A stretch of DNA of 64,000 bases from an uncultured Candidatus Saccharibacteria bacterium (GTDB lineage: Bacteria > Patescibacteriota > Minisyncoccia > Phycocordibacterales > JABMNX01). The stretch is taken from the NCBI GenBank assembly GCA_964575755.1, contig CAZNRH010000002.1, positions 70,351 to 134,350 on the forward strand, in the 5' to 3' direction. A program made the position numbers and the translations under genes. The notes under the pieces are model-generated. The model saw nothing but the letters and a program-made list of their open reading frames with translations. It was not told where the DNA came from and did not search any database. Shown here in pieces: positions 3,012 to 58,633 of this stretch. How positions within the stretch are numbered: position 1 is the first letter of the stretch; every line of letters starts with the position of its first letter.

Positions 3012-3029
3012 ACCACTTAGACGATCCGG
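3012..3029. repeat. 15-17 nt direct copy of the tRNA-Gln 5' end (ttagacgatccggca)
   Basis: Exact 15-nt match to 2851-2865, about 150 bp from the tRNA gene. Confidence 0.6.
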
Positions 3030-3101
3030 CAATTATTCTATTGTCTACTACAATATTAAATTACTACGTAATATTGCCTTAATTAAAGTATGTAATCAAG
3101 T

Positions 3102-4157
3102 CTATTTAAGTAACTTCACAAGAGCGAGCTCTACTGGAAGTTGAGGAATATATGAACGAGATATTGCATCATATGCTCCAAGGAGCTCATATAGTACAAC
3201 TGAATTAATATGAGACTCCTTGCCCTCACTTAATTTTTTAAGAAATTCAAAATCTTCTTTTACAAACTGCTCTTTAAACCCTTTTTCCATTTCTTTTGCA
3301 TATTTAAGGAGCAAGACCACACGTACTTTATGGAGTACTAGCTTCATAAATGTTTTTATATCAAGGTTCTGTGCCACTACGTCCCCTACAACCTCAAGTG
3401 CATTTTCAAGCTTTTTCTCTGCAATAGCTTCGATAAAATTATTAATAAGCTTCCCTTTTGGCGCCCCTGTTACAAGCTCTACTTCTTCTATGCTTACTTT
3501 ATTGTATTTTGAAGATGAAAGTATCTTTTGCAAAACTCCATGTGCATCACGAAACGAACCCTCTGCAAGCATCGCTATTAAATCCGCTGAAGCTGGCTCT
3601 AGTGAGAATTTTTCCTTCTTCGCGATATCCGTTATCATTTTTGCTAAAATTTGTCTGCTTGGTTTTTTAAATGTAAAACTCTGACATCGCGATATTATCG
3701 TCTCTGGTAACTTCCCTTCTTCTGTTGTTGCCAGCATAAACACAACATGCTTTGGTGGCTCTTCAAGTGTCTTTAAGAGTGCATTAAAAGCTTCTTTAGT
3801 TAGCATGTGTACCTCGTCAATAATATAAACTTTGTACGGAGACTCAAATGGAAGTGTGTGTACTGACTCACGAAGTGCTCGTATGTCATCAATACCACGA
3901 TTTGAAGCAGCATCGATTTCATACATATCATTCTGTGATGCTCCTATCGCTCGCGCCAGTATACGCGCAATACTTGTCTTCCCTGTTCCTCGAGAACCAG
4001 AGAAAAGATATGCGTGTGATATATTTCCCTGCTCTATTGCACCCTCAAGCACAGAGACAATATGCTCCTGCCCGAGCACATCTTTAAACTCCTCAGGACG
4101 ATATTTCCTATAGAGCGCTGTTTGTCTATTTTGGCTGGCATTAGAATCTGCTGACAT
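3102..4157 (-). CDS. dnaX: DNA polymerase III subunit gamma/tau (short form)
   Basis: AAA+ Walker A GSRGTGKTS. DEVH box IIDEVHML. Sensor region TIISRCQSFTFKKP. Confidence 0.9.
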   Translation of the reverse strand: MSADSNASQNRQTALYRKYRPEEFKDVLGQEHIVSVLEGAIEQGNISHAYLFSGSRGTGKTSIARILARAIGASQNDMYEIDAASNRGIDDIRALRESVHTLPFESPYKVYIIDEVHMLTKEAFNALLKTLEEPPKHVVFMLATTEEGKLPETIISRCQSFTFKKPSRQILAKMITDIAKKEKFSLEPASADLIAMLAEGSFRDAHGVLQKILSSSKYNKVSIEEVELVTGAPKGKLINNFIEAIAEKKLENALEVVGDVVAQNLDIKTFMKLVLHKVRVVLLLKYAKEMEKGFKEQFVKEDFEFLKKLSEGKESHINSVVLYELLGAYDAISRSYIPQLPVELALVKLLK

Positions 4158-9662: not shown

Positions 9663-11870
9663 ATGAAACTATTAATTGTAGAATCGCCAGCAAAAGCAAA
9701 AACTATTTCAAAATATCTTGATGATAAATACACAGTACGCGCATCTGTGGGGCATGTTCGTGATTTACCAAAAAGTAACAAAAATGCTATCGATATAGAT
9801 GCAGGTTTTGTCCCCAACTATGAAATATCAAAAGGTAAAGAAGACATCATAAATGAACTTAAAAAACTAGCTAAAAAATCTGATGAAGTGCTCCTTGCAA
9901 CTGACCCCGACCGAGAAGGTGAAGCAATCGCATGGCACTTGAAAGAAATACTAAAACTTAAAGACCCTAAACGAGTTGTGTTTAACGAAATTACAAAAGA
10001 AGCTGTGCAAGAAGCTGTTGCACAGCCAAGATTGATAGATGACAATCTGCGTAAAGCTCAAGAAGCTAGACGCATACTAGATAGACTTGTTGGTTATGAC
10101 CTTTCTGGATTGATATGGAAAAAGCTACGCTATGGACTATCTGCAGGACGCGTTCAGTCACCCGCACTTCGAATCATAATGGAGCGTGAGCGTGAGATAC
10201 GTGCGTTTATACCTGAAGATTTTTGGGTACTAACTGCCGACGTAACAACTGCAAAAAAAGTAGCTTTTCAGCTTACGTGTACTAAAGAACCAAAAACAGA
10301 AGAAGAGGCAAAAAGGATCTGTAAAGTTGGAAAGAAGGGGGCTTGGGTGATTAAGGACGTTATAGAAACGAAAGCCAAACGCTCGCCGAAACCACCATTT
10401 ATAACATCAACACTGCAACAAGTTGCGAGCACTCGGCTAGGTTTTGCGCCAAGTCGTACTATGGGTATTGCACAGAAGTTATACGAATCTGGACATATAA
10501 CATATATGCGTACTGATAGTACCAATCTAAGCAATCAAGCACTTACCCATATTGAAGAAGTTGTTAAAGATAAGTATGGAGCTAAGTTCAGTAACAAAAA
10601 TGTATTTAAAGCCAAGAGCAAAGGTGCACAAGAAGCACATGAAGCTATTCGACCTTCAAACTTCCTTAAAGAAAGTGCTGGTAATAACGAAGACCAAAAG
10701 AGTCTCTATACTTTAATTTGGGAAAGGACTGTTGCTTCTCAGATGTCAGATGCAGAAATACTGCGCACTAAAATAACTGCCAATATAATAAATGAAACAG
10801 AAAGTAATGCTATTCCAAATTTTGCTACCAATGGATCACGAGTTATGTTTGAAGGATGGCTCAAGGCAGATCCACGAGCACGCGGTGAAGATGTTGAACT
10901 TCCCAAAGTAATGAAAGATGAACCTATAACGCTTAAAGATATGGGGTCAGAAGGTAAACAAACCCAGCCACCTTTCCGTTATACAGAGGCTGGTCTTATT
11001 AAAAAACTTGAAGAACGTGGCATTGGACGCCCCTCCACATATGCATCTATCATGAGGACACTCCAAGACCGTGAATATGTAATAAAAGAAGGACGAACTC
11101 TCTTCCCCACTGACACTGGAGATGTGGTGAGCTCATTTCTTGAGAAGAATTTTGAAAAATATATCAGTGATTCGTTTACAGCAGAGATGGAAAATGAGCT
11201 TGATGAAATAGCACAAGGAGAACGCAAATATGAAAAAACATTAAAAGATTTCTATACTCCATTTAGTAAAGATGTTAAATCAAAAGAGAGTATGGACAAG
11301 ATAACAAATCTTGGCGACGCCCCAGATGAATTTGACTGTCCTAAGTGTAAAAGCAAAATGATTATCAAGCTTGGACGAGGTGGTAAGTTTATGAGTTGCG
11401 ACAAGTTTCCAGAATGTATAGGCGCTCGGACAATAGAAGGAAAGATTATAGAACCAGACAAACCAATTGGAAAACATTCCGAAACAGGAGAGGATGTATA
11501 TCTGCTCACAGGGCGTTTTGGTCCATATGTTCAAATGGGAGCAAGTCCAGCAAAAGGAGAGAAAAAAAAAGAAAAGCCACGCCGAGCGAGCGTGCCAAAA
11601 GAAAAAGATATCGACGAAGTCACAATGATAGACGCAGAGAAATATTTGAGCCTACCTCGCATACTCGGAAAGCATCCTGAGACAAACGAAGACATCACAG
11701 CAAGCATAGGACGCTTTGGACCATTTATCGTGCATGATGGAGATTTTCGCTCACTGAAAACAGATGATGTGTACGCTATAAAATTAGATCGGGCTCTTGA
11801 AATACTAGCAGAAGAAAAAAAGACTCGAGGTAAGAAAAAGGCGGTAAAAAAGAAGGCGGTAAAAAAGTAG
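9663..11870 (+). CDS. topA: DNA topoisomerase I
   Basis: TOPRIM start MKLLIVESPAKAKTI. C-terminal zinc ribbon CPKCKS...C and a lysine-rich tail. Confidence 0.95.
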   Translation: MKLLIVESPAKAKTISKYLDDKYTVRASVGHVRDLPKSNKNAIDIDAGFVPNYEISKGKEDIINELKKLAKKSDEVLLATDPDREGEAIAWHLKEILKLKDPKRVVFNEITKEAVQEAVAQPRLIDDNLRKAQEARRILDRLVGYDLSGLIWKKLRYGLSAGRVQSPALRIIMEREREIRAFIPEDFWVLTADVTTAKKVAFQLTCTKEPKTEEEAKRICKVGKKGAWVIKDVIETKAKRSPKPPFITSTLQQVASTRLGFAPSRTMGIAQKLYESGHITYMRTDSTNLSNQALTHIEEVVKDKYGAKFSNKNVFKAKSKGAQEAHEAIRPSNFLKESAGNNEDQKSLYTLIWERTVASQMSDAEILRTKITANIINETESNAIPNFATNGSRVMFEGWLKADPRARGEDVELPKVMKDEPITLKDMGSEGKQTQPPFRYTEAGLIKKLEERGIGRPSTYASIMRTLQDREYVIKEGRTLFPTDTGDVVSSFLEKNFEKYISDSFTAEMENELDEIAQGERKYEKTLKDFYTPFSKDVKSKESMDKITNLGDAPDEFDCPKCKSKMIIKLGRGGKFMSCDKFPECIGARTIEGKIIEPDKPIGKHSETGEDVYLLTGRFGPYVQMGASPAKGEKKKEKPRRASVPKEKDIDEVTMIDAEKYLSLPRILGKHPETNEDITASIGRFGPFIVHDGDFRSLKTDDVYAIKLDRALEILAEEKKTRGKKKAVKKKAVKK

Positions 11871-11881
11871 TATCGAAAAAA

Positions 11882-11913
11882 GCCGTCGTGTTTTAGGCGA
11901 CGGCCTTTTGTTT
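11882..11913 (+). terminator. rho-independent terminator of topA
   Basis: Stem gccgtcg/cgacggc followed by ccttttgtttg. Confidence 0.65.
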
Positions 11914-11919
11914 GCTTTG

Positions 11920-12204
11920 TCATATCCCCTTCAGAAATCCTGTTGATTTTGTTCCGAATACATGAGCACCGGAAGAAGGTTCACTGGAATGACGCTTCTG
12001 CTTAGAGCGTTCTTTTTCGAACGCAATCACCTCATCTAATGAAGCACCAGGTGGAAGTTTCTTCTCCTGGTCAGTGTCGGACTTAAGTCGCTCCTGCCCA
12101 TAAGGACAATCATGGGAGTCTTCTTCGGCTCTACAGGGTCTGTCGACAACTTGCGAACAGTAGCGACACCGAGTTTTCTCAGTAGTACGATTCTTATTGC
12201 ACAT
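11920..12204 (-). CDS. hypothetical Cys-rich small protein (possible zinc ribbon)
   Basis: 94-aa ORF with CxxC...C...C spacing. Sits between topA and rel. Confidence 0.3.
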   Translation of the reverse strand: MCNKNRTTEKTRCRYCSQVVDRPCRAEEDSHDCPYGQERLKSDTDQEKKLPPGASLDEVIAFEKERSKQKRHSSEPSSGAHVFGTKSTGFLKGI

Positions 12205-14974: not shown

Positions 14975-15056
14975 GCTGGAGTGGTGGAATTGGTATACAC
15001 GTACGACTCAAAATCGTATGCCGCAAGGCTTGAGGGTTCAAGTCCCTCCTCCAGCA
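14975..15056 (+). tRNA. tRNA-Leu (anticodon CAA)
   Basis: Acceptor GCTGGAG/CTCCAGC. Anticodon stem TACGA/TCGTA with loop CTCAAAA. Long variable arm. Discriminator A. Confidence 0.8.
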
Positions 15057-15078
15057 CTTTGTATAGAAAACTAAATAT

Positions 15079-15115
15079 GGACTCAAAATCGTGTCTCGCA
15101 AGGGATGAGGGTTCG
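15079..15115 (+). pseudogene. partial degenerate copy of the tRNA-Leu(CAA) anticodon-to-T-arm region
   Basis: gactcaaaatcgt and tgagggttc are identical to the tRNA 22 nt upstream. The rest has diverged. Confidence 0.55.
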
Positions 15116-15299
15116 TCGAAGAAACTGTAAAAGCTGCTTTTTCAGGTTCAGGTTCAATTGCTGTAAATTCATCTTCTGGAGTTACAGAGGCAAGCCAAGA
15201 AGATGATTATGTAGAAGCCTCCGCCCAAGAAGCCAAAAAACTGCGCGACCAAATGCGTGAAGCGGGCGGTAATTGCTAATTATTTTTATGCAACGTCAA

Positions 15300-15335
15300 A
15301 CGGCGACCCTCGCAGGTCGCCGTTTTTTCTTTTTT
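15300..15335 (+). terminator. rho-independent terminator
   Basis: Stem acggcgacc/ggtcgccgt followed by tttttctttttt. Confidence 0.7.
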
Positions 15336-18773: not shown

Positions 18774-19017
18774 AATGCATTTAATGATATATGTAAAATG
18801 TGGTGGTTACAAGGTGGATGAAGTGGTTAATATTTTCAAATCCTGCCTGGCGTGACAAACAAAATCACCCCATGCTTTCACATTGGGTGATTTTGTATTA
18901 TTTATTTGGCGCAGGTTTCTAAGCTCACTGCGTTCACTAAGAACCTCCTGCCCTAGCTCGCGGTAACAATTTTTAAGGAAAAAGAAAAATCGTTACATCG
19001 CTCCGCTTCACAGAAAC

Positions 19018-19048: not shown

Positions 19049-19057
19049 ACATTTCTG

Positions 19058-19141
19058 TGCGCCGGGCAGGATTTGAACCTGCGTAGGGCTATGCCCGTCA
19101 GATTTACAGTCTGATGCGATTGACCACTCCGCCACCGACGC
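19058..19141 (-). tRNA. tRNA-Tyr (anticodon GUA)
   Basis: Acceptor GCGTCGG/CCGGCGC. Anticodon stem TCAGA/TCTGA with loop CTGTAAA. Long variable arm. Discriminator A. Confidence 0.8.
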
Positions 19142-24995: not shown

Positions 24996-26507
24996 ATGGA
25001 TAAAGAAAACAAAACTAAGAGGGCTCCAGTTATTGTGGTTATGGGACATGTTGATCATGGGAAATCAGCGCTTCTTGACTATATCCGAAAGACCAATGTA
25101 GTAGAGGGTGAAGCTGGAGGTATAACGCAACACATTTCAGCATACGAAGTTGAACATAAAGACAAAGAAGGCACAGTGCAGAAAATTACTTTCCTTGATA
25201 CCCCTGGACACGAATCATTCTCAAAGATGCGAGCACGTGGTAGCAAGGTTGCTGATATAGCAGTGTTAGTAGTTTCAGCAGAAGATGGAGTGAAGACTCA
25301 AACACTAGAAGCGTATAAAACTATTAAAGATAATGGTATTCCATTTATAATTGCTATCAATAAAATCGACAAACCAGAAGCAAATATTGAACGTACAAAG
25401 ACGAGCTTACTTGGACATGAGATTTATCTTGAGGGGGCTGGTGGCGATATACCATGGGTAGCTATATCAGCAAAAGTAGGCACGGGTGTGGATGACCTCC
25501 TCGATATGATGCTCCTTGTGTCAGACATGGCAGAGCTTACTGGGGACATAAATAAAAAAGCAGAAGGTGTTGTACTAGAGTCTCACCGTGACAACAAAAA
25601 AGGAATATCTGCCACGCTACTTATTAAAGATGGATACATAAAGAAAGGAGATTTCATTCAATCAGGAGAAAGTGTGTCACCTGTTCGAATAATGGAAGAC
25701 TTTACAGGTAAAAGCATTGCAGAGGCGCAGTTCTCTACCCCAATTAATATAATAGGGTTCAATGTCACACCAAAAGTTGGGGAATTATTTAATACTTATA
25801 ATTCTAAAAAGGAAGCTGAGAAAGTAGCTCTGGCGTATAAAGAAGAAAACAAAAAGACTGAGAAGCAATCTGCACCAGTAACAATAGCTCGCGACAGCGA
25901 AATAAAATTAATACCAATAGCGCTCCGCGCAGATGTGCTTGGGTCAATTGAAGCAATAGAACATGAAATTAATAAAATATCACACGAGCGCGTAGAGATA
26001 AAGATAATACAAAGAAACGTTGGTACAGTAACAGAAGGAGATATAAAACTAGCTCTTGGTAGCCCCGACTTATTGATAATCGCTTTTAATGTAGGTACAG
26101 ATAAAGCTGCTCTAGATCTCGCCACAAGAAACGGTATCAAAATACATTCGTTTGATATTATCTATAAGCTGGCTAAGTGGCTTGAAGAAGAAATAAAACA
26201 ACAAGCCCCTAAAATAAACACTGAGGAGACAACTGGAAGTGCTACTCTTCTAAAAATATTTAGCAAAAACAAAGATAAGCAAGTAGTAGGCGGTAAGGTA
26301 AATACAGGATCCATTAAAGTTGGTAGTGTTGTTAATATAACCAGACGCGACAACCGCATAGGCACTGGAACTGTTATTGGACTACAACAACAAAAAGCCG
26401 CAACTAAGGAAGTTGAAGAAGGAAGCGAGTTTGGAGCACAAATAGATTCACGTATTGAATTAGCTCCAAACGACACCATTGAAAGCTTTATTATCGTTAA
26501 AAAGTAA
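24996..26507 (+). CDS. infB: translation initiation factor IF-2 (short form)
   Basis: G-domain [10 protein letters not shown]...DTPGHE...NKID followed by the IF-2 C-terminal domains. Confidence 0.9.
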
Positions 26508-26643
26508 GTTACTATTATGACTTACTACACTCGGATGCAGTTTGAGACACAAGTGAAAAATGGAAAAAGGCATATTATACATATGGCGTCTGACATTTTT
26601 CATGAAGTGACGAAGAAATGCGCCGAGTGCATAAGTCATAATT

Positions 26644-26973
26644 ATGTCCGATAGAACTTTAAAGGTATCATTACTTGTTAAAGAAGCTGCTGCCGATTTT
26701 CTTAACAGGGAATCTAATCACACGTCACTTATTACCGTGACTAACGCAACAATTTCAAAAGACTTCAGTAATGCTACTGTATTTTTTACAGTTTTTCCTG
26801 ATGATCAACAAGAACAAGTTCTTCATTTCACACGCAGGAAAAGAGCTGACTTTAAATCATATTTAAAGTCTCGCCTTCATTTAAGGAGAATACCCTTCGT
26901 TGATTTCAAAATAGACGAAGGAGAAAAACATCGCCAAAGAATCGATGAGATTTCACAGGAAGTAGAAGAATAA
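26644..26973 (+). CDS. rbfA: ribosome-binding factor A
   Basis: KH-like RbfA fold pattern and conserved position directly after infB. Confidence 0.7.
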   Translation: MSDRTLKVSLLVKEAAADFLNRESNHTSLITVTNATISKDFSNATVFFTVFPDDQQEQVLHFTRRKRADFKSYLKSRLHLRRIPFVDFKIDEGEKHRQRIDEISQEVEE

Positions 26974-27001
26974 TGTAGAAAGTTTAGTATAATAGAATAC
27001 T

Positions 27002-27074
27002 GACCACGTGGCGAAGTAGTTAACGCAGCGGTTTGCAAAACCGCCATACGCGGGTGCAGATCCCGCCGTGGTCT
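27002..27074 (+). tRNA. tRNA-Cys (anticodon GCA)
   Basis: Acceptor GACCACG/CGTGGTC. Anticodon stem GCGGT/ACCGC with loop TTGCAAA. Discriminator U. The T-loop TGCAGAT is atypical. Confidence 0.7.
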
Positions 27075-27125
27075 CAAGTTAAAATATCTTGTCTTCAAAC
27101 GACAAAAATATTTTTACGTAAATAT

Positions 27126-27209
27126 GCCGGGATGGTGGAATTGGTATACACGCAACACTTAAAATGTTGTGGGCGTAAGCCCATGCGGGTTCAACTCCCG
27201 CTCCCGGCA
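27126..27209 (+). tRNA. tRNA-Leu (anticodon UAA)
   Basis: Acceptor GCCGGGA/TCCCGGC. Anticodon stem CAACA/TGTTG with loop CTTAAAA. Long variable arm. Discriminator A. Confidence 0.8.
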
Positions 27210-27222
27210 CAAAGAGAAATGA

Positions 27223-27256
27223 ACCTCGTCTGAGAAGACGAGGTGATTTTCTTTTG
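27223..27256 (+). terminator. terminator after tRNA-Leu(UAA)
   Basis: Stem acctcgtct/agacgaggt followed by gattttctttt. Confidence 0.6.
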
Positions 27257-27258
27257 TA

Positions 27259-27388
27259 GCCGGGAGCGGGAGTTGAAAGACGGAAGCGGTATACAAGATG
27301 CGTAGTGAAACGGAGCAGGCTTGTCGCTGAGTCGGGGTCGAGAGTACTTAGTGCATAGCACTTAGTAACTCGTGACCAACTCCCGCTT
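27259..27388 (+). repeat. tRNA-linked AGACGGAAGC element (unit A)
   Basis: Starts with the reverse complement of the tRNA-Leu(UAA) 3' end (gccgggagcgggagttgaa). Then aagacggaagc. Core gctgagtcggggtcgaga. Ends ttagtaactcgtgacc plus a copy of the tRNA T-arm 3' strand (caactcccgct). Confidence 0.6.
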
Positions 27389-27457
27389 CTAATAGAAAAA
27401 CAAATTTGTTTTGTAACCTTTTTCTGTTACTATAACTCTTGTTATATTACACAACAT

Positions 27458-27530
27458 CCGCCTATAGCTCAGTTGGTAGAGCAACCGCCTCTTAAGCGGT
27501 GGGTCGCAGGTTCGAGTCCTGCTGGGCGGA
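27458..27530 (+). tRNA. tRNA-Lys (anticodon CUU)
   Basis: Acceptor CCGCCTA/TGGGCGG. D-arm GCTC-AGTTGGTA-GAGC. Anticodon loop CTCTTAA. T-arm GCAGG-TTCGAGT-CCTGC. Discriminator A. Confidence 0.85.
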
Positions 27531-27534
27531 CAAT

Positions 27535-27580
27535 GAAATAAAATACTCCCATTTTTGTGGGAGTATTTTATTTCATTTCT
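27535..27580 (+). terminator. long hairpin terminator after tRNA-Lys
   Basis: 17-bp stem gaaataaaatactccca/tgggagtattttatttc followed by atttcttc. Confidence 0.55.
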
Positions 27581-27588
27581 TCTACACT

Positions 27589-27720
27589 GGACTCGAAAGA
27601 CGGAAGCCCGCGTGCCAAAGCACGAGAGAGGGCTGAGTCGGGGTCGAGAACACTTAATATTTCAGGAATACCTGGACTAAAATATTTAGTGATTCGTGAC
27701 CGAGTCCTGCTGGGCGGACA
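27589..27720 (+). repeat. tRNA-linked AGACGGAAGC element (unit B)
   Basis: Starts ggactcgaa, the reverse complement of the tRNA-Lys T-loop/stem. Then agacggaagc. Core gctgagtcggggtcgaga. Ends tttagtgattcgtgacc plus an exact 20-nt copy of the tRNA-Lys 3' end (cgagtcctgctgggcggaca). Confidence 0.65.
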
Positions 27721-27796
27721 CGCGCAAAACAAAATACGCTATACCTATGGCGTATTTTGCTTTAACAAGCAAACTGCTTTGCTTGTGGAGCTTGTC

Positions 27797-27973
27797 CGAG
27801 ACGGAGCAATGTTTTGTTGCCTGTTTTTCCTAAGACAACAAAACCGCGAGCCCAGACCAAAAGCACTTAGTAGATTTCAAGCGAAGCGAAAAAATCTATT
27901 TAGTGACTTGTGGTGACTAAGTGATAAAATAAGGTTTGCGAATTTAGAAACCTGCGCCGAGTCCTTTAAATTA
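27797..27973 (+). repeat. GAGACGGAGC-motif element X1
   Basis: gagacggagcaatgttttgttgcc...aacaaaaccgcgag hairpin, then ...tttagtgacttgtggtgac...gcgaatttagaaacctg. Ends gcgccgagtcct, resembling the tRNA-Lys T-arm. Homologous to 46433-46532. Confidence 0.55.
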
Positions 27974-28021
27974 ACAACTTGTGATGACGAGGTACACTGC
28001 TTTTTGTATGTACTCGTGTCT

Positions 28022-28060
28022 GAGACGGAGTGATATTTTGGTACGATGCATCGCTCGGAA
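28022..28060 (+). repeat. GAGACGGAG-motif element X2 (short or partial)
   Basis: gagacggagtgatattttggtacgatgcatcgctc. Confidence 0.4.
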
Positions 28061-28125
28061 TAAATCAAACAAACACCACTTGAAACAAAATCAATACTAA
28101 ACTATACTAGTGGACACATATTAAT

Positions 28126-28189
28126 GTGCGAGTGGTGAAATTGGTAGGACAAACAGTGTTTAAACACTGTTTGTCCCCGTCGAGTGAGG
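28126..28189 (+). pseudogene. tRNA-like pseudogene (tRNA-Leu-derived 5' half, no T-arm or acceptor 3' strand)
   Basis: GTGCGAGTGGTGAAATTGGTAGGAC closely matches the 5' half of the adjacent tRNA-Leu (GCGCGAGTGGCGAAATTGGTAGAC). Followed by an aberrant anticodon hairpin with a 6-nt loop and no T-arm. Confidence 0.5.
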
Positions 28190-28218
28190 AAATGTTCGTT
28201 ATAAAAAATTGATAGTGT

Positions 28219-28300
28219 GCGCGAGTGGCGAAATTGGTAGACGCGCTAGTCTTAGGAACTAGTGGGGCAACCCATGGAGGTTCAAGTCCTCTCTCGCGCA
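28219..28300 (+). tRNA. tRNA-Leu (anticodon UAG)
   Basis: Acceptor GCGCGAG/CTCGCGC. Anticodon stem CTAGT/ACTAG with loop CTTAGGA. Long variable arm. Discriminator A. Confidence 0.85.
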
Positions 28301-28345
28301 CAGTGTCTATTTTTTATAGAACATAGTAAAAGGTATCGCAAGATG

Positions 28346-28373
28346 TGGAGGTTCAAGTCCTCTCTCGCGCACA
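28346..28373 (+). repeat. exact 28-nt direct copy of the tRNA-Leu(UAG) 3' end
   Basis: tggaggttcaagtcctctctcgcgcaca is identical to 28275-28302, with a 43-nt spacer. Confidence 0.8.
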
Positions 28374-28379
28374 TAAAAC

Positions 28380-28412
28380 AAAAAACACCTAGCTTACACT
28401 AGGTGTTTTTTG
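28380..28412 (+). terminator. rho-independent terminator
   Basis: Stem cacctag/ctaggtg followed by ttttttg. Confidence 0.6.
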
Positions 28413-28422
28413 TTTCACGAAC

Positions 28423-28812
28423 TTAAAAAGAAACATTATCATTATAATGAGAATAAAAGTTACCACCTCCACTTCCTCTCCTCTCTATCACACCTGGTAT
28501 AATCACATTTTGATCCTGTACACTAAAAGTAGATTGGAGCATTCTAATCAATCCCCAAATTGAAACCATTACAAAAAGAGCAATAATTCCATATATCATA
28601 ATGTCTCGCCCTTCGGATTTTTTATCCTCACTTCCTTGATTAAATATGAACTGAGCCAACCCCCAGAAGAAATAAAGCACTGCAAGAGCTAGTACCAACG
28701 GAATTGCCGTATTTATTAAGCTAGAAAAAGTACCCATCACAGCTTCCAAACTTTGAGCACTAGCCACTAGTGGCATAATAAGCAATCCTAACGCCACAAA
28801 AAATGTTTTCAT
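28423..28812 (-). CDS. TrbC/VirB2-like pilin-type small membrane protein
   Basis: Signal peptide MKTFFVALGLLIMPLVASA followed by two TM helices (AIPLVLALAVLYFFWGLAQ and IMIYGIIALFVMVSIWGLIRML). Confidence 0.6.
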   Translation of the reverse strand: MKTFFVALGLLIMPLVASAQSLEAVMGTFSSLINTAIPLVLALAVLYFFWGLAQFIFNQGSEDKKSEGRDIMIYGIIALFVMVSIWGLIRMLQSTFSVQDQNVIIPGVIERRGSGGGNFYSHYNDNVSF

Positions 28813-46428: not shown

Positions 46429-46432
46429 TTGT

Positions 46433-46532
46433 GAGACGGAGCGATGTTTTGTTTTCCATTTTTACTAGAAAACAAAACCGCGAGTCCGGAGAGGAAGTTC
46501 TTAACAAGCGTAGCGAGTTTAGAAACTTGACC
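46433..46532 (+). repeat. GAGACGGAGC-motif element X3 (homolog of X1), bracketed by two terminators
   Basis: gagacggagcgatgttttgttttcc...aaaacaaaaccgcgagtcc...caagcgtagcgagtttagaaacttgacc shares blocks with 27797-27973. Confidence 0.55.
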
Positions 46533-46560
46533 TCAGTTCCAGCTTTCCTACATTGTAAGC

Positions 46561-53675: not shown

Positions 53676-54359
53676 TTATTTTTCTATATCTGATATGATC
53701 TGCCTTCTAAAAGCAGTCAGTCTTTTACCTCCCATTTTTTCATATACACTTAGTTCCACATGATGTTTTTTACACAAAAAACAAAGACTATTTTTCTTTG
53801 AATGTAGATGTATGTACTGTAATAATATTTTATATACGTCGTATTTCTCTGTACCAGAAATGTATCCGTGGTCACATGCTATCTTCAAATTATCCGGTCT
53901 ACTTTTTTGAAGGTGTACTGTATCTAAATCATTCCTATTGCACTCTGGGAACTGACAAGTTGTCACAATCTTCTTTAATGGACTAAAAAAACTTTGAGTT
54001 ATATTGCGGACTTCACCTGACAACATAGTAAGCACCTTTAAATCTGAGTTTGTAACAATATAAATGTCTCTATATTTCTCAAAAAACTTTGGCTTAGTAG
54101 ACTTAAAAATAATATCAACTTTTTTTCTATCTTGAGCGACCATAATACCTTTAATAATCGCCAAGCTCTCTTGTTTACGAAAACAAAATAGCTTATTTTT
54201 GTCTTTATCTTGAATATTATATTTTTTAAGTATTTTCCACGACTTGAATCCTTTACTATTTACTGAATCATGTCCAAGCATATTATCAAGCTGCCTAGTT
54301 GACAGGCCTGATTTCAAGAAATGTAGCAAAACATCTTTATCTTTAGTATTAAATTTCAT
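53676..54359 (-). CDS. HNH-type endonuclease-like protein
   Basis: CQFPEC...LDTVHLQKSRPDNLKIACDHGY...CFLCKKHH has an HNH-like H/N/H arrangement with flanking Cys pairs. Start set at the internal Met (MKFNTKD). Confidence 0.5.
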   Translation of the reverse strand: MKFNTKDKDVLLHFLKSGLSTRQLDNMLGHDSVNSKGFKSWKILKKYNIQDKDKNKLFCFRKQESLAIIKGIMVAQDRKKVDIIFKSTKPKFFEKYRDIYIVTNSDLKVLTMLSGEVRNITQSFFSPLKKIVTTCQFPECNRNDLDTVHLQKSRPDNLKIACDHGYISGTEKYDVYKILLQYIHLHSKKNSLCFLCKKHHVELSVYEKMGGKRLTAFRRQIISDIEK

Positions 54360-54581
54360 AGTATTAATATACTCGTTTACCAAGTAAAACAAAACCAACT
54401 AGTGATACATAGGTTGCCATTACCTCACTTGTCAAGTTTTATAACAAGCCAACAGAGTAATAAGTACGAGTTGTAGAAGAAAAAAGCGTGTTTAATACAA
54501 AAAAACGAGCAATTACCGTGTTATCATTTATGGTATATCAAAAAGAGAAAATTGATATAATCAATTATATAAAATAACTTT

Positions 54582-56435
54582 ATGCAAAAAGATTTAGAGA
54601 AAACTTTAAATAATTATAGTCCTTTTATTATTGAAACAGCTCTTGTTCAATTATTTATTGACTCTAATAATTTAACTGTAAAAAAAAATGAACTTATTAG
54701 ATCTCTACTAGAAAATAAAAGTGAAGAAATTCTGAAAGCTAAGGAGTTTCTAATAAACAAGATAGAAACAAAAAATATAATCGACTTTGTAAATATATTT
54801 GAATTACTAATTCCTTTAGATGATAAAAAAAATAACGGAGCCTTCTTTACTCCGTCAAATATTACTGATTTTATAGTTTCTGAAACAATAGACTCAAGAT
54901 CTCAGAGAATTCTAGACCCTAGTTGCGGGTGTGGCGCTTTCCTTATCTCTGCCACAGACTTTATTGCAAAAAAATATAATAAGAGTGTCACGAAAACAAT
55001 TGAAGAAAATATATTTGGAGTGGACATAGCAAAATACAGCATAAAAAGAGCTAAAATTCTTCTTTCGCTTCTCGCTCTTAAAAATAATGAGGATAAAAAA
55101 GAAATAAAATTCAATCTTAAAACAAAAGACAGTTTGACGACTGACTGGAAAAAATTATTTCCAGAAATAAAAAATGGGTTCGACGTGGTTATAGGTAATC
55201 CTCCTTATGTTAAATTCCAAGACCTTAACGAAGACCTAAGGAAAAGTCTGTCTAAAAATTGGCAAACCCTAAATACTGGAAATTATAATCTTTATTTTGC
55301 CTTCTTTGAGTTAGGAATTAGTGTTATGAAAAATACTGGAGTACTTGGTTATATTACACCTAACAACTATTTTACTTCCTTAGCGGGAATTCATCTCAGA
55401 GAATTCCTAGAATCTAATAGGTTAATAGAAAAAATTATTGATTTCAACCACTTTAAAGTTTTTGATGCTCAAACATATACAAGTATAAGTTTTTTAAGTA
55501 AAGGTAATAACGTATCTTTCGATTATGAAAAAATCGATGACTGTGCGAAATTAAATTCATTAAAAAAATTACAATACTCGAAAATAAATTTTAGTGATTT
55601 AAATAATAAAAAATGGCGACTTCTACGTCATGGTGATCAAGAGAATATAAAAAAAATTGAAAATATAGGTAGAAAACTAGGAGATATAGTAAAAATTAGA
55701 GTTGGAGTAGCTACATGCAAAGATTCTGTGTACTTTGTGGACGGTTCAACTTTTGATGGAAAATATTTACATAAATCATACAACGGGAAGGATTATTTTA
55801 TTGAAAAAGACATTACTCAATCAATAGCAAAAATTTCTGACTTTAAAGCACAAGATGACCTAGGCGAAAACAATCGAAGAATAATTTTCCCTTATAGAAA
55901 AAAAAATAGAAACGTAGAAATCATTGAGGAAGATAAGTTAAAAAAAAAATACCCTTATTGTTATAAGTATCTTATGGCTGCTAAGTCAGAACTGGCATCA
56001 AGAGACAAGGGAGCTGTTAATTATCCAGAATGGTACGCCTACGCAAGAACCCAAGGACTTAATTTTTTAGGGAAAAAGCTACTTACTCCAACATTCAGCT
56101 CTAAGCCAAGGTTTCTGCTTGAAAAGAATGAAAATACACTATTCTGTAACGGATATGCTATTTACTTAGACAATAGACCGTCTTTATTTTACAAAACTGA
56201 ACAAAAATTAAATCTGTCCATTCTTAGCAAAATACTCAATTCGTCTATAATGGAATACTACATTAAACAAACTAGCGTATCTATTGATGGTGGGTACCCA
56301 TGCTATCAAAAGAATTTTATTGAACTGTTAGGAATTCCGGACTTCACCTCAAACGAACTAGGTTACTTAAACAGGGAAAAAGATGGAAAATTAATTAATG
56401 ATTTTTTAACAGGTAAATACGGTGTGCAAATCTAG
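54582..56435 (+). CDS. N6-adenine DNA methyltransferase, Eco57I-like (gamma-class) with C-terminal target-recognition region
   Basis: Motif I ILDPSCGCGAFL. Motif IV VIGNPPYV. Preceded by FFTPSNITDFIV. Confidence 0.85.
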   Translation: MQKDLEKTLNNYSPFIIETALVQLFIDSNNLTVKKNELIRSLLENKSEEILKAKEFLINKIETKNIIDFVNIFELLIPLDDKKNNGAFFTPSNITDFIVSETIDSRSQRILDPSCGCGAFLISATDFIAKKYNKSVTKTIEENIFGVDIAKYSIKRAKILLSLLALKNNEDKKEIKFNLKTKDSLTTDWKKLFPEIKNGFDVVIGNPPYVKFQDLNEDLRKSLSKNWQTLNTGNYNLYFAFFELGISVMKNTGVLGYITPNNYFTSLAGIHLREFLESNRLIEKIIDFNHFKVFDAQTYTSISFLSKGNNVSFDYEKIDDCAKLNSLKKLQYSKINFSDLNNKKWRLLRHGDQENIKKIENIGRKLGDIVKIRVGVATCKDSVYFVDGSTFDGKYLHKSYNGKDYFIEKDITQSIAKISDFKAQDDLGENNRRIIFPYRKKNRNVEIIEEDKLKKKYPYCYKYLMAAKSELASRDKGAVNYPEWYAYARTQGLNFLGKKLLTPTFSSKPRFLLEKNENTLFCNGYAIYLDNRPSLFYKTEQKLNLSILSKILNSSIMEYYIKQTSVSIDGGYPCYQKNFIELLGIPDFTSNELGYLNREKDGKLINDFLTGKYGVQI

Positions 56436-57235
56436 AAAATATCTTTACTCCCGAATCTTTTAGTATAAATATCTAACATATCTTTTGTAAATCCACTTAT
56501 TGTAAGATTTTTCAAGTTGACTTTTGTGTTTTTAGAAACCAACCCATCCATCTTCAACTCTTTAATTGAAGAATAAAGTTTAGGGCTTTTTTTTCTGAAA
56601 TCAACAATTAAAAGACAGACTCTTTCATATTTATACTCGTTTCCTTTTATAGAATGTCTGTTATTAATGGCTTGAAACATTCGTATGTATTCTTCTATAT
56701 TTGAAACTGACTTGAATTCTACTTTATTTTGCAACATTGCTTTATCATCATATTCGTGAGTAGGTATTAAGTATACTTCTCCCATACACTGTTTAGGATG
56801 ATTTAAATGTAAGTTTAAAGCTTCTGCAAACGTTCTCTCATATAAAGTGTCAATGTTTTTCTTTAAGCTACTTAATTGACTACGTACATTAACGCTAATA
56901 ATCCTTTTTATTCTAGGATCATCAGTATTAGTTATAGGTATCAACTCAATATTAGGAATAATGACGATGTCTTGGTTTTTTGACTTTAAAAACCCTTTGA
57001 TTTTAATCTCAGGACTAGATTCTCCAACTGGTGGAAAAATCTTTTGTGATTGAACTTTATTTTCTACAAAATCTCTTTTTATAAAATCATGAATAATATT
57101 TATTATTTTTTGGGAACGAATTAAAGCTTCTTTGGCTTTATGTCCATTTTCATATGTATTACCATTAAACTTCGAAGTGGTAATTGCTTCGTCATAATCT
57201 TTCTTTATTTTTTTGAGAACCTGTTGTATTGTCAT
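56432..57235 (-). CDS. candidate restriction endonuclease partner (unclassified)
   Basis: 267-aa ORF convergent with and overlapping the methyltransferase stop. Possible PD-D/ExK-like D...E(V)K segments. No firm family assignment. Confidence 0.35.
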   Translation of the reverse strand: MTIQQVLKKIKKDYDEAITTSKFNGNTYENGHKAKEALIRSQKIINIIHDFIKRDFVENKVQSQKIFPPVGESSPEIKIKGFLKSKNQDIVIIPNIELIPITNTDDPRIKRIISVNVRSQLSSLKKNIDTLYERTFAEALNLHLNHPKQCMGEVYLIPTHEYDDKAMLQNKVEFKSVSNIEEYIRMFQAINNRHSIKGNEYKYERVCLLIVDFRKKSPKLYSSIKELKMDGLVSKNTKVNLKNLTISGFTKDMLDIYTKRFGSKDIF

Positions 57236-57346
57236 AATTATCTTAAAACTACGTTAAAAGGTATACTCCCACAAAATATAGCTAAAATCAATGAAAAAAC
57301 AAATCTCCCCGAGGTTAAACCTCGGGGAGTATACAAGTATTCTTGA

Positions 57347-58558: not shown

Positions 58559-58633
58559 GGCCCTATCGTCTAACGGTTAGGACATCAGGTTTTCAATCTG
58601 GTAATCAGAGTTCGATTCTCTGTAGGGTCACCA
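58559..58633 (+). tRNA. tRNA-Glu (anticodon UUC), CCA encoded
   Basis: Acceptor GGCCCTA/TAGGGTC. TC-GTCT...GGAC D-arm as in E. coli tRNA-Glu. Anticodon loop TTTTCAA. T-arm CAGAG-TTCGATT-CTCTG. Confidence 0.7.

Follow-up and report, generated by a model that had tools for sequence, protein, structure and literature searches.

Integrative elements that use tRNA and tmRNA genes, including integrase-less, cis-mobilisable ones and the tycheposons of Prochlorococcus, target the 3′ parts of these genes and restore their 3′ end. The tRNA-linked modules described here resemble them in both respects, as well as in the displaced partial copy at the far end, the tandem arrays and the variable presence. 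They differ from these elements in being ~180 nt long and gene-free, in having their target copied in antisense and a three-way junction that covaries, in using one core family for all tRNA specificities and in having no linked integrase. IS200/IS605 elements, their miniature derivatives and REP/RAYT sequences may share with the modules a non-coding, hairpin-rich make-up, activity on one strand and extragenic positions by terminators. In these systems an internal guide pairs with the target and with the cleavage sites at the ends, and insertion takes place 3′ of the recognised sequence with no classical duplication; a GTAG-like motif past the first terminator of many module copies is a further likeness. 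However, the guide of the modules would be 9–19 nt instead of 4–5 nt, their core is a three-way junction instead of paired left and right hairpins, and no Y1 transposase was found (a phmmer search with an approximate IS200 TnpA query had no match in 2,932 ORFs of the loci analysed). Integron attC sites and the attP(+) site of CTX phage share with the modules a topology of target copy, cargo, inverse copy, structured region and target copy. In these systems, as would hold for the modules, the site is formed by one folded strand with extrahelical bases or mismatches, arrays form by repeated insertion and the recombinase comes from the host or acts in trans. The modules, on the other hand, show no linkage to IntI or Xer, their paired box is the T-loop region of a tRNA and not GTTRRRY or dif, and their only cargo is a terminator.

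Sugahara et al. reportedly proposed, in 2012, a model for the disruption of archaeal tRNA genes by integrating elements. There, as in the modules, partial tRNA duplicates lie around inserted DNA, and the process bears on the origin of split and fragmented tRNA genes; it differs in being archaeal, mediated by an integrase and carried out by elements at the kilobase scale. In Patescibacteria, tRNA genes host self-splicing group I introns at position 35/36 of the anticodon loop (PMC13011429). These introns belong to the same phylum and likewise make tRNA genes a habitat of selfish structured nucleic acids, but the modules lie outside the intact gene, behind a terminator, and have no match to the introns in Rfam.

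The window, which is the whole 64-kb stretch of DNA that was analysed, is a housekeeping region of a patescibacterial (CPR) genome with genes for DnaX, Dus, SerRS, DprA, TopA, RelA/SpoT, ParB, MiaA, ClpB, IscS, a short IF-2, RbfA, GyrA, FtsA/Z and others; the relatives of its IF-2 and RbfA are named Kaiserbacteria, Pacebacteria and Paceibacterota. A sequence-only reading of this DNA had described, on the two sides of an intact tRNA-Leu(UAG), a tRNA-like 5′ half and an exact 28-nt copy of the 3′ end followed by a terminator. The features identified at this locus were the following:

28080–28108, plus strand: candidate sigma-70-like promoter (TTGAAA-17-TATACT) upstream of the pseudo-half and of tRNA-Leu(UAG), by consensus match only
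28126–28147, plus strand: 5′ fragment (positions 1–22) from an older allele of tRNA-Leu(UAG); its D-arm, GGTGAAATTGG, is old-type
28147–28176, plus strand: perfect 15+15-nt palindrome in the place of the anticodon arm, with one occurrence in the window
28177–28218, plus strand: leader conserved with relative L007, holding a second degenerate copy of the 5′ end, GTCGAGTGAGGAAAT
28219–28301, plus strand: intact tRNA-Leu(UAG) (28219–28301 by ARAGORN; 28219–28300 by Rfam, 58 bits)
28293–28318, plus strand: trailer half of an inverted repeat of 26 nt, whose other arm is leader 28200–28225; the two arms are 88% complementary
28332–28373, plus strand: displaced 42-nt 3′ part of a tRNA-Leu(UAG), with variable arm, T arm, 3′ strand of the acceptor, discriminator and CA
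28376–28415, plus strand: intrinsic-terminator-like hairpin, a 17-bp perfect stem followed by a T run

ARAGORN and Rfam agreed with the sequence-only reading on the intact gene, of whose CCA end C74 alone is encoded, and the perfect hairpin with its T run confirmed the terminator past the 3′ copy. The repeat is exact (28275–28302 is identical to 28346–28373) and far beyond chance (~4^-28 per position pair). Its length had been underestimated: the copy is 42 nt long and comes from another allele. Alignment with the genes of relatives assigned 28332–28373 to the allele type of tRNA-Leu(UAG) in L007, L006 and L208, with the variable arm GGTATCGCAAGATG, and its last 28 nt match the intact gene, which has an L003-type variable arm, GGGGCAACCC. 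On the 5′ side, the tRNA-like fragment is real (28125–28147 and the first 23 nt of the intact gene are 91% identical), and what had been taken for an aberrant anticodon hairpin is the palindrome. The inverted repeat of leader and trailer lengthens the acceptor stem by ~19 bp; such pairing was not general among the other tRNAs checked. The source is a metagenome assembly, in which repeats may be wrongly joined, and an assembly artefact or a chance repeat was weighed as an explanation. It can be given very little credence, as positions 25000–28619 are 100% identical over 3.6 kb to NCBI contig L001 (possibly the same assembly as the window), the same architecture recurs on more than 100 unrelated contigs, and both the exact 28-nt repeat and the covariation described below are far beyond chance.

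Six relatives (L003, L004, L006, L007, L008 and L208) have the same gene order, infB, rbfA, the tRNA genes Cys/Leu(UAA)/Lys/Leu(UAG) and pilin genes. A scan of genome contigs for IF-2 yielded only two close relatives, and others were obtained by exact-protein contig look-ups. The 3′ copy at a spacing of 43 nt from tRNA-Leu(UAG) was seen in none of five syntenic relatives, among them L003, L004, L006 and L208. The locus is therefore polymorphic, and the comparison of related genomes that the sequence-only reading had recommended came out in favour of mobility. Among the syntenic relatives the 5′ pseudo-half is common to the window and L007 only, and the pseudo-half together with the leader (28126–28218) is homologous to L007 4268–4373; it is thus an inherited structure, and this homology rules out random decay as its origin. 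Judging from the allele types of gene and fragments in the alignment with the relatives, the locus looks like an allelic patchwork, with old-type 5′ and 3′ fragments around a newer-type gene. The older allele would have been left as the fragments 28126–28147 and 28332–28373, and the ~180 nt between them would be an insert made of the hairpin, the leader, a complete newer-type tRNA-Leu(UAG) and its trailer. Both fragments may be a scar of the same traffic as the tRNA-linked insertion units described below.

For this locus only, homologous recombination or gene conversion between divergent alleles, for example at a double-strand break due to a free-standing homing endonuclease, or a partial tandem duplication followed by decay, was weighed as another origin. 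Two allele types are mixed at the locus, the intact gene is followed by 30 nt that correspond to the native trailer in L208, and an HNH_3-like ORF lies within the same tRNA cluster of L208. In addition, a covariance model of the module core (R1, see below) had no match to a three-way junction at this locus, including the interval between the gene and the 3′ copy; without a core, recombination or conversion between alleles could be enough to make the patchwork and no element would be needed. However, the tRNA cluster of the window contains no endonuclease gene, the same tRNA-Leu(UAG) bears a canonical unit instead in L208 and L007, and the pseudo-half with its hairpin is common with L007, similar 5′ copies elsewhere being always upstream. 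The recurrence of upstream-only 5′ copies and the sharing of the pseudo-half with L007 suggest a directed process instead of random duplication, and we consider an origin by allele recombination or duplication and decay improbable. Read as a scar of insertion, the Leu(UAG) repeat has its value as a pointer to an abundant family of tRNA-specific structured modules in Patescibacteria.

Five tRNAs of the window had been noted to have partial self-copies nearby. These copies exist, but they are not uniform: those at Leu(UAA) (11-nt sense and 22-nt antisense) and Lys (20-nt sense and 9-nt antisense) belong to one module family, and those at Gln and Leu(CAA) are different. Model R1 detected five copies of the core in the window, which are listed here with the remaining partial tRNA copies:

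27211–27387, plus strand: canonical unit of tRNA-Leu(UAA) (27126–27210), with a terminator hairpin at 27223–27244, an antisense copy of the tRNA 3′ end at 27256–27277 and a truncated sense copy at 27377–27387; model hit 27268–27384, 101 bits
27532–27720, plus strand: canonical unit of tRNA-Lys(CUU) (27458–27531), with a terminator at 27532–27577, an anti-T-loop at 27589–27597 and a full sense copy (C56 to 3′ end) at 27701–27720; model hit 27588–27708, 102.6 bits; the native terminator of the tRNA, 27726–27763, is 3′ of the unit
27766–27914, plus strand: small hairpin CAAGCAAACTGCTTTGCTTG (27766–27785) and a core without closing helix (27799–27914, 51 bits)
46432–46535, plus strand: core without closing helix, downstream of ftsZ, with a terminator on either side
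18907–19010, minus strand: core without closing helix, 47 nt behind the gene of tRNA-Tyr (19057–19141) and past its terminator
18835–18853, minus strand: orphan antisense copy of the T-loop/T-stem of tRNA-Tyr, GGCAGGATTTGAA, without a core
3017–3031, minus strand: 15-nt copy of the 5′ end of tRNA-Gln (2796–2867), located ~150 nt upstream of this gene; hairpins come after the copy
15080–15115, plus strand: degenerate fragment of tRNA-Leu(CAA) (14975–15057), from anticodon arm to T-loop, ~81% identical, with a different variable arm, starting 22 nt 3′ of the gene

A canonical unit has a size of ~150–215 nt (~180 nt for those in the window) and starts 1–4 nt past the discriminator base of a tRNA or tmRNA gene. 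Its 5′ end supplies a new trailer with a strong terminator hairpin (T1), by which proper termination of the tRNA is preserved. There follows an antisense copy, 9–19 nt in length, of the T-loop and T-stem of the unit's own tRNA, which sometimes includes the acceptor strand, and then a conserved, folded three-way-junction core of ~110–130 nt. The core features a helix of the form GAC-G-GA...GA-GUC, a hairpin marked by a CUUAG/CUUAG U-U mismatch and by a bulged A, and GCGNAGC-rich hairpin tips. Last comes a sense copy that reproduces the tRNA from position C56 up to its 3′ end; by pairing with the antisense segment it closes the junction. The native terminator of the tRNA comes after the unit. 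The copies at Leu(UAA) and Lys are thus no bare att scars; they proved to be the terminal helix of a folded core that carries an antisense T-loop. An ORF of 119 amino acids (27557–27916) was called over module sequence. The cores at 27268–27384 and 27588–27708 had no overlapping match in Rfam, with its hammerhead, twister, hatchet, pistol, HDV-like, T-box and Y RNA-like families, even at E≤10, and at the gathering score only tRNAs were found. A full-text search of the literature retrieved no description of the module. Apparently, this is a family of structured tRNA-linked modules that has been undescribed so far.

The two cores share one three-way-junction fold, with z-scores of -4.9 and -4.0. 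Covariation was measured on a MAFFT alignment for which the structure was drawn by hand. Pairing was found in 92.7% of the paired cells, compared to 75.1% in shuffles and ~35% with slid partners, and double-sided changes numbered 336, against 98 in shuffles. An R/Y pair left unconstrained by the search pattern was Watson-Crick in all 63 of 63 copies. The cells of the aligned helices that are not Watson-Crick are nearly all G-U and not A-C, which indicates that it is the tRNA-sense strand that folds, as RNA or as single-stranded DNA. Several known motifs were compared with the junction. Hammerhead, hairpin, twister-sister and k-turn consensus sequences, compared by eye only, did not appear to fit it; a kink-turn or box C/D-like RNA was discarded because the bulge of the P2 motif GAC-G-GA/GA-GUC is of 1 nt, where a kink-turn has three nt and then tandem sheared G-A pairs, and because a C box (RUGAUGA) is missing; and an integron attC was discarded because the paired box is T-loop sequence (GGRWTYG/CRAWYCC) instead of RYYYAAC...GTTRRRY, with no IntI context.

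A scan of metagenome contigs with a degenerate pattern located at least 120 loci. Among the 133 pattern matches listed, 85 have a same-strand tRNA ending at most 600 nt upstream, the 5′ arm is complementary to the upstream tRNA in 71, representing 29 anticodons, and the distance from the tRNA end to the core clusters at 61–66 nt; several seeming orphan copies adjoin upstream tmRNA genes. Model R1, built from 60 copies and used with a cut-off of E<1e-6, identified 141 copies in ~0.85 Mb of patescibacterial sequence. For 117 of them a tRNA or tmRNA on the same strand ends less than 700 nt upstream (94 within 100 nt), and 10 more lie at contig edges. The tRNA-linked copies span 20 amino-acid specificities and tmRNA. 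The antisense segment has at least 10 exact nucleotides to its own tRNA in 54/94 copies (57%), compared with 4.3% for other tRNAs. Without exception the sense copy begins at C56, and in most cases it stops at the exact tRNA end, with a length of 19–20 nt. Around 226 tRNAs, copies of the 3′ end were found downstream in 70 cases and upstream in none, and copies of the 5′ end upstream in 13 and downstream in none; this sample is biased to module loci, and pre-selection of the metagenome set by sequence pattern inflates both such end-copy statistics and the count of invariant positions. The modules account for the partial tRNA copies that crowd the neighbourhoods of CPR tRNA genes. Such copies can mislead tRNA annotation, the prediction of genomic islands (as false att sites) and ORF calling.

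Which tRNA bears an insert varies from genome to genome, in agreement with the proposal of the sequence-only reading that tRNA loci are hot spots of recombination and insertion. Units are present at Cys (two), Leu(UAA) and Lys in L003, at Tyr and Trp in L004, at Leu(UAA) and Trp in L006, at Leu(UAA) (two) and Leu(UAG) in L007, at Leu(UAA), Trp and Tyr in L008, and at Lys and Leu(UAG) in L208. Compared site by site, the window, L003 and L208 have a unit at Lys, which L004 and L006 lack; Cys, with its two units in L003, is unoccupied in the window and L004; at Tyr the unit of L004 is canonical and that of the window degenerate; and at Leu(UAG) canonical units occur in L208 and L007, with none in the window, L003, L004 and L006. 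The comparison of filled and empty sites also defined the boundaries. In the window, the sequence past the sense copy of the Lys unit is homologous to the terminator that lies directly 3′ of tRNA-Lys in L004, and the same homology to the native trailer or terminator was observed for Cys (L003 compared to L004 and L006) and Leu(UAG) (L208 compared to the window). These homologies place the unit between the tRNA end and the original trailer.

Further signs of movement came from nearly identical copies in different surroundings. In L188, the stretch that runs from the first base past the discriminator through to where the sense copy ends is ~100% identical between two copies. One of the two is away from any tRNA, abuts ...GACTCC...TCA and keeps its tRNA-Glu-specific ends; it is the only off-target copy, and its flank may be a decayed tRNA. 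Over 108 nt, the window's core near tRNA-Tyr has 99% identity with the core behind tRNA-Leu(GAG) in L124, a contig of assembly GCA_006243245.1, which also includes L001, and their flanks are unrelated. Neither of these two boundary pairs (L188; window/L124) has terminal inverted repeats or a target duplication. Two modes of spread are possible, as copies without a closing helix duplicate the core alone. Tandem arrays of units occur in L003, L007, L096, L136 and L153. No excised form or circular junction of a unit was seen, and neither viral contigs nor phage or plasmid records yielded a copy. Taken with the polymorphism, the nearly identical copies and the arrays point to non-autonomous mobile units whose insertion sites lie immediately 3′ of tRNA and tmRNA genes, a reading to which we give about an even chance.

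The units resemble single-strand systems, namely the guide pairing of IS200/IS605 and the folded attC and CTX sites, in topology and strand specificity. A tentative proposal, to which we attach limited confidence, is that they represent a new class of non-autonomous element in which a folded single strand carries a 9–19-nt antisense guide to the T-arm and 3′ end of a tRNA or tmRNA and, with no enzyme encoded by the element itself, is mobilised by a host or trans-acting protein. The unit would move as a folded single strand, most likely single-stranded DNA of the tRNA-sense strand. Base pairing would lead the antisense segment to the T-arm and 3′ end of the target; the terminal copy of the tRNA end would set the right boundary. 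We infer that a putative enzyme acting in trans would cut and join the DNA, following a logic like that of the guide-directed "peel and paste" of IS200/IS605 or that of folded attC/CTX-type sites. Mobile, target-guided units would represent a new and very small system of DNA insertion directed by base pairing, akin to the guides of IS200/IS605, bridge RNAs and omega RNAs. The mobile elements of Patescibacteria are poorly known, and a partner enzyme of such units would be worth finding. The modules also constitute a natural system for the study of fragmentation and replacement of tRNA genes.

The long-term compensatory covariation fits a functional RNA equally well. In this alternative the core is a non-coding RNA, expressed by read-through of the terminator or from an unrecognised promoter, with an antisense arm that works on the cognate tRNA, or on its pre-tRNA, as a guide, as a chaperone, in quality control, or as a scaffold with a mimic of the tRNA 3′ end for a tRNA enzyme; copies are kept because they are useful. 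The strength of the covariation and its specificity to the tRNA-sense strand agree with this, and so do the tandem G-A and U-U motifs, which are typical of protein-binding RNAs, the orientation of the unit, always the same as that of its tRNA, and the spread of the family over Patescibacteria classes. However, the spacer between tRNA and module is nearly always occupied by a strong A-tract/hairpin/U-tract terminator, T1, with no space for a promoter, which argues against co-transcription of the module with the tRNA. Modules are found at some tRNAs only, and orthologous tRNAs differ in both occupancy and core subtype (in the Leu(UAA) core, for example, the P2 insert differs between the window and L003, and subtypes vary at one tRNA among relatives). 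Many sense copies are truncated, many antisense arms stand as orphans, and tandem copies are frequent too; at L007 3775–3875 a simpler, unrelated core retains the antisense/sense helix only. A role as functional RNA is a minority reading, though one with some weight; if it holds, the modules would be an abundant new class of structured RNA tied to single tRNAs in minimal-genome organisms. The terminator between each tRNA and its module also speaks against the processing-related duplication that had been offered as a second explanation of the copies, and a duplication by 3′ processing at the RNA level was rejected for that reason. Other candidates set aside were template and variable repeats of the DGR type (the copies show no A-specific differences), a primer-binding site of the retroviral type (the sense copy is left unexplained) and replication template-switching around the terminator (which predicts that T2 equals T1, and this is not seen).

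Site-specific integration and excision at tRNA 3′ ends, the first-named proposal of the sequence-only reading, was only partly supported; neither an adjacent integrase nor five equivalent sites were found. The search for integrase genes that it had called for yielded none in the 64-kb window, where 40 ORFs were compared to Pfam and NCBIfam and no transposase was detected either. At the module loci, at least 120 in number, no recombinase is consistently next to the modules: 5 loci have a tyrosine recombinase and 4 a serine recombinase, at 0.7–12 kb and in no fixed arrangement. Clustering of 923 ORFs from the module loci produced housekeeping genes and no shared partner enzyme.

The modules could nevertheless be attL/attR scars of tyrosine-integrase elements that are mostly deleted, or miniature cis-mobilisable elements that use a distant integrase. 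Genes for tRNA and tmRNA are classic targets of such elements, the repeat from T-loop to 3′ end is a classic identity block, and a direct repeat of the tRNA 3′ part does flank the inserted DNA. Williams reportedly defined, in 2002, classes of sublocation for integration in tRNA genes. The inserted DNA brings a new 3′ end and a terminator, tandem arrays exist, a tyrosine recombinase gene is located 0.7 kb past a unit in L116, and the fragments at Leu(UAG) and Leu(CAA) begin in the anticodon or variable region, as is the case with anticodon-loop integrases. Against this, a duplex attP needs neither an antisense copy of the core nor compensatory changes within a strand, and att specificity read by a protein offers no explanation for one core that serves at least 29 anticodons. 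Moreover, no integrase gene lies in or beside the inserted DNA in the window or adjoins it elsewhere, and phage, plasmid and viral collections contained nothing comparable (a BLAST search with the Lys unit had no match in phage and plasmid records, and the pattern scan of viral contigs gave a single chance match, inside a coding region). We consider an origin as remnants of integrase elements unlikely. With regard to the fold of the mobile units proposed here, the heptamer d(GCGAAGC) is an unusually stable DNA mini-hairpin, and the likeness of the GCGNAGC-rich hairpin tips of the core to it is suggestive only.

A second family of elements, the mirror image of the modules that lie 3' of tRNA genes, is located upstream of tRNA genes. 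Its members are composed of a sense copy of tRNA nucleotides 1 to 15-17 followed by a conserved CCC-AAGGG-N-AAGGG-RTAGAGTCC... element. The copies listed here are found in relatives that are syntenic with the window.

L004 12159-12248, one copy
L208 5877-5986 and 6793-6902, two copies
L007 about 3187-3361, copies in tandem

Copies of tRNA 5' ends were found exclusively upstream, at 13 of 226 tRNAs in a sample biased toward module loci.

The syntenic relative L008 carries, at about 11860-12055, an extra and nearly complete copy of tRNA-Cys that is split just 3' of T54-T55 of the T-loop by a "simple-type" module, the core of which is that of L007 3775-3875. This interrupted copy is followed by an antisense tRNA-Cys segment and then by the intact tRNA-Cys. 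Here the T-loop itself may have been the site of insertion. The tRNA cluster of L208 that is syntenic with that of the window includes a reading frame.

L208 6182-6703, 173-aa ORF with a weak match to HNH_3 (homing-endonuclease-like), flanked by tRNA-Cys and tRNA-Leu(UAA)

The putative HNH_3-like product could drive gene conversion among adjacent tRNA alleles.

One canonical module was found behind the terminator of a protein gene, with a DUF3800 gene adjoining, in the 3,200-nt contig L135 (1-3200), and a tRNA-His-like 3' end is still matched by the antisense arm of this module. Because the contig ends in an exact terminal direct repeat of 127 nt, it may represent a 3,073-bp circle or else a repeat-bounded assembly.

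Two short motifs recur in flanking positions of the modules. In some of the units (13 loci), the hairpin GCAAACUGCUUUGC is placed between the antisense arm and T1, the terminator hairpin next to the tRNA. In many units, UUUUGUAG, which recalls the GTAG tag of REP elements, lies directly 3' of the T1 U-tract. Two features belong to the region of the module behind tRNA-Lys(CUU).

27557-27916, 119-aa ORF with a GTG start, also called in the identical NCBI contig L001 (2558-2917)
27766-27785, small hairpin, a module-flanking motif

The ORF lacks any family match, and its whole length falls on the Lys module, the core copy that comes next and a terminator. It almost certainly represents a spurious prediction produced by these elements. 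Elsewhere in the window, one reading frame, a possible small ORF, is open over 15116-15285, 3' of the tRNA-Leu(CAA) fragment, until the terminator at about 15290-15330.

Nine of the 10 tRNA genes in the window encode just the first C after the discriminator instead of the full CCA, which is encoded only by tRNA-Glu (58559-58633). The stretch at 54000-57300 has a GC content of 0.285-0.32 vs. about 0.38 elsewhere and includes two reading frames.

54582-56435, Eco57I/MmeI-type N6 DNA methylase
56432-57235, unannotated 267-aa ORF

This stretch is probably an acquired, small restriction-modification island. The genes for tRNA-Ser(CGA) and tRNA-Glu adjoin it.
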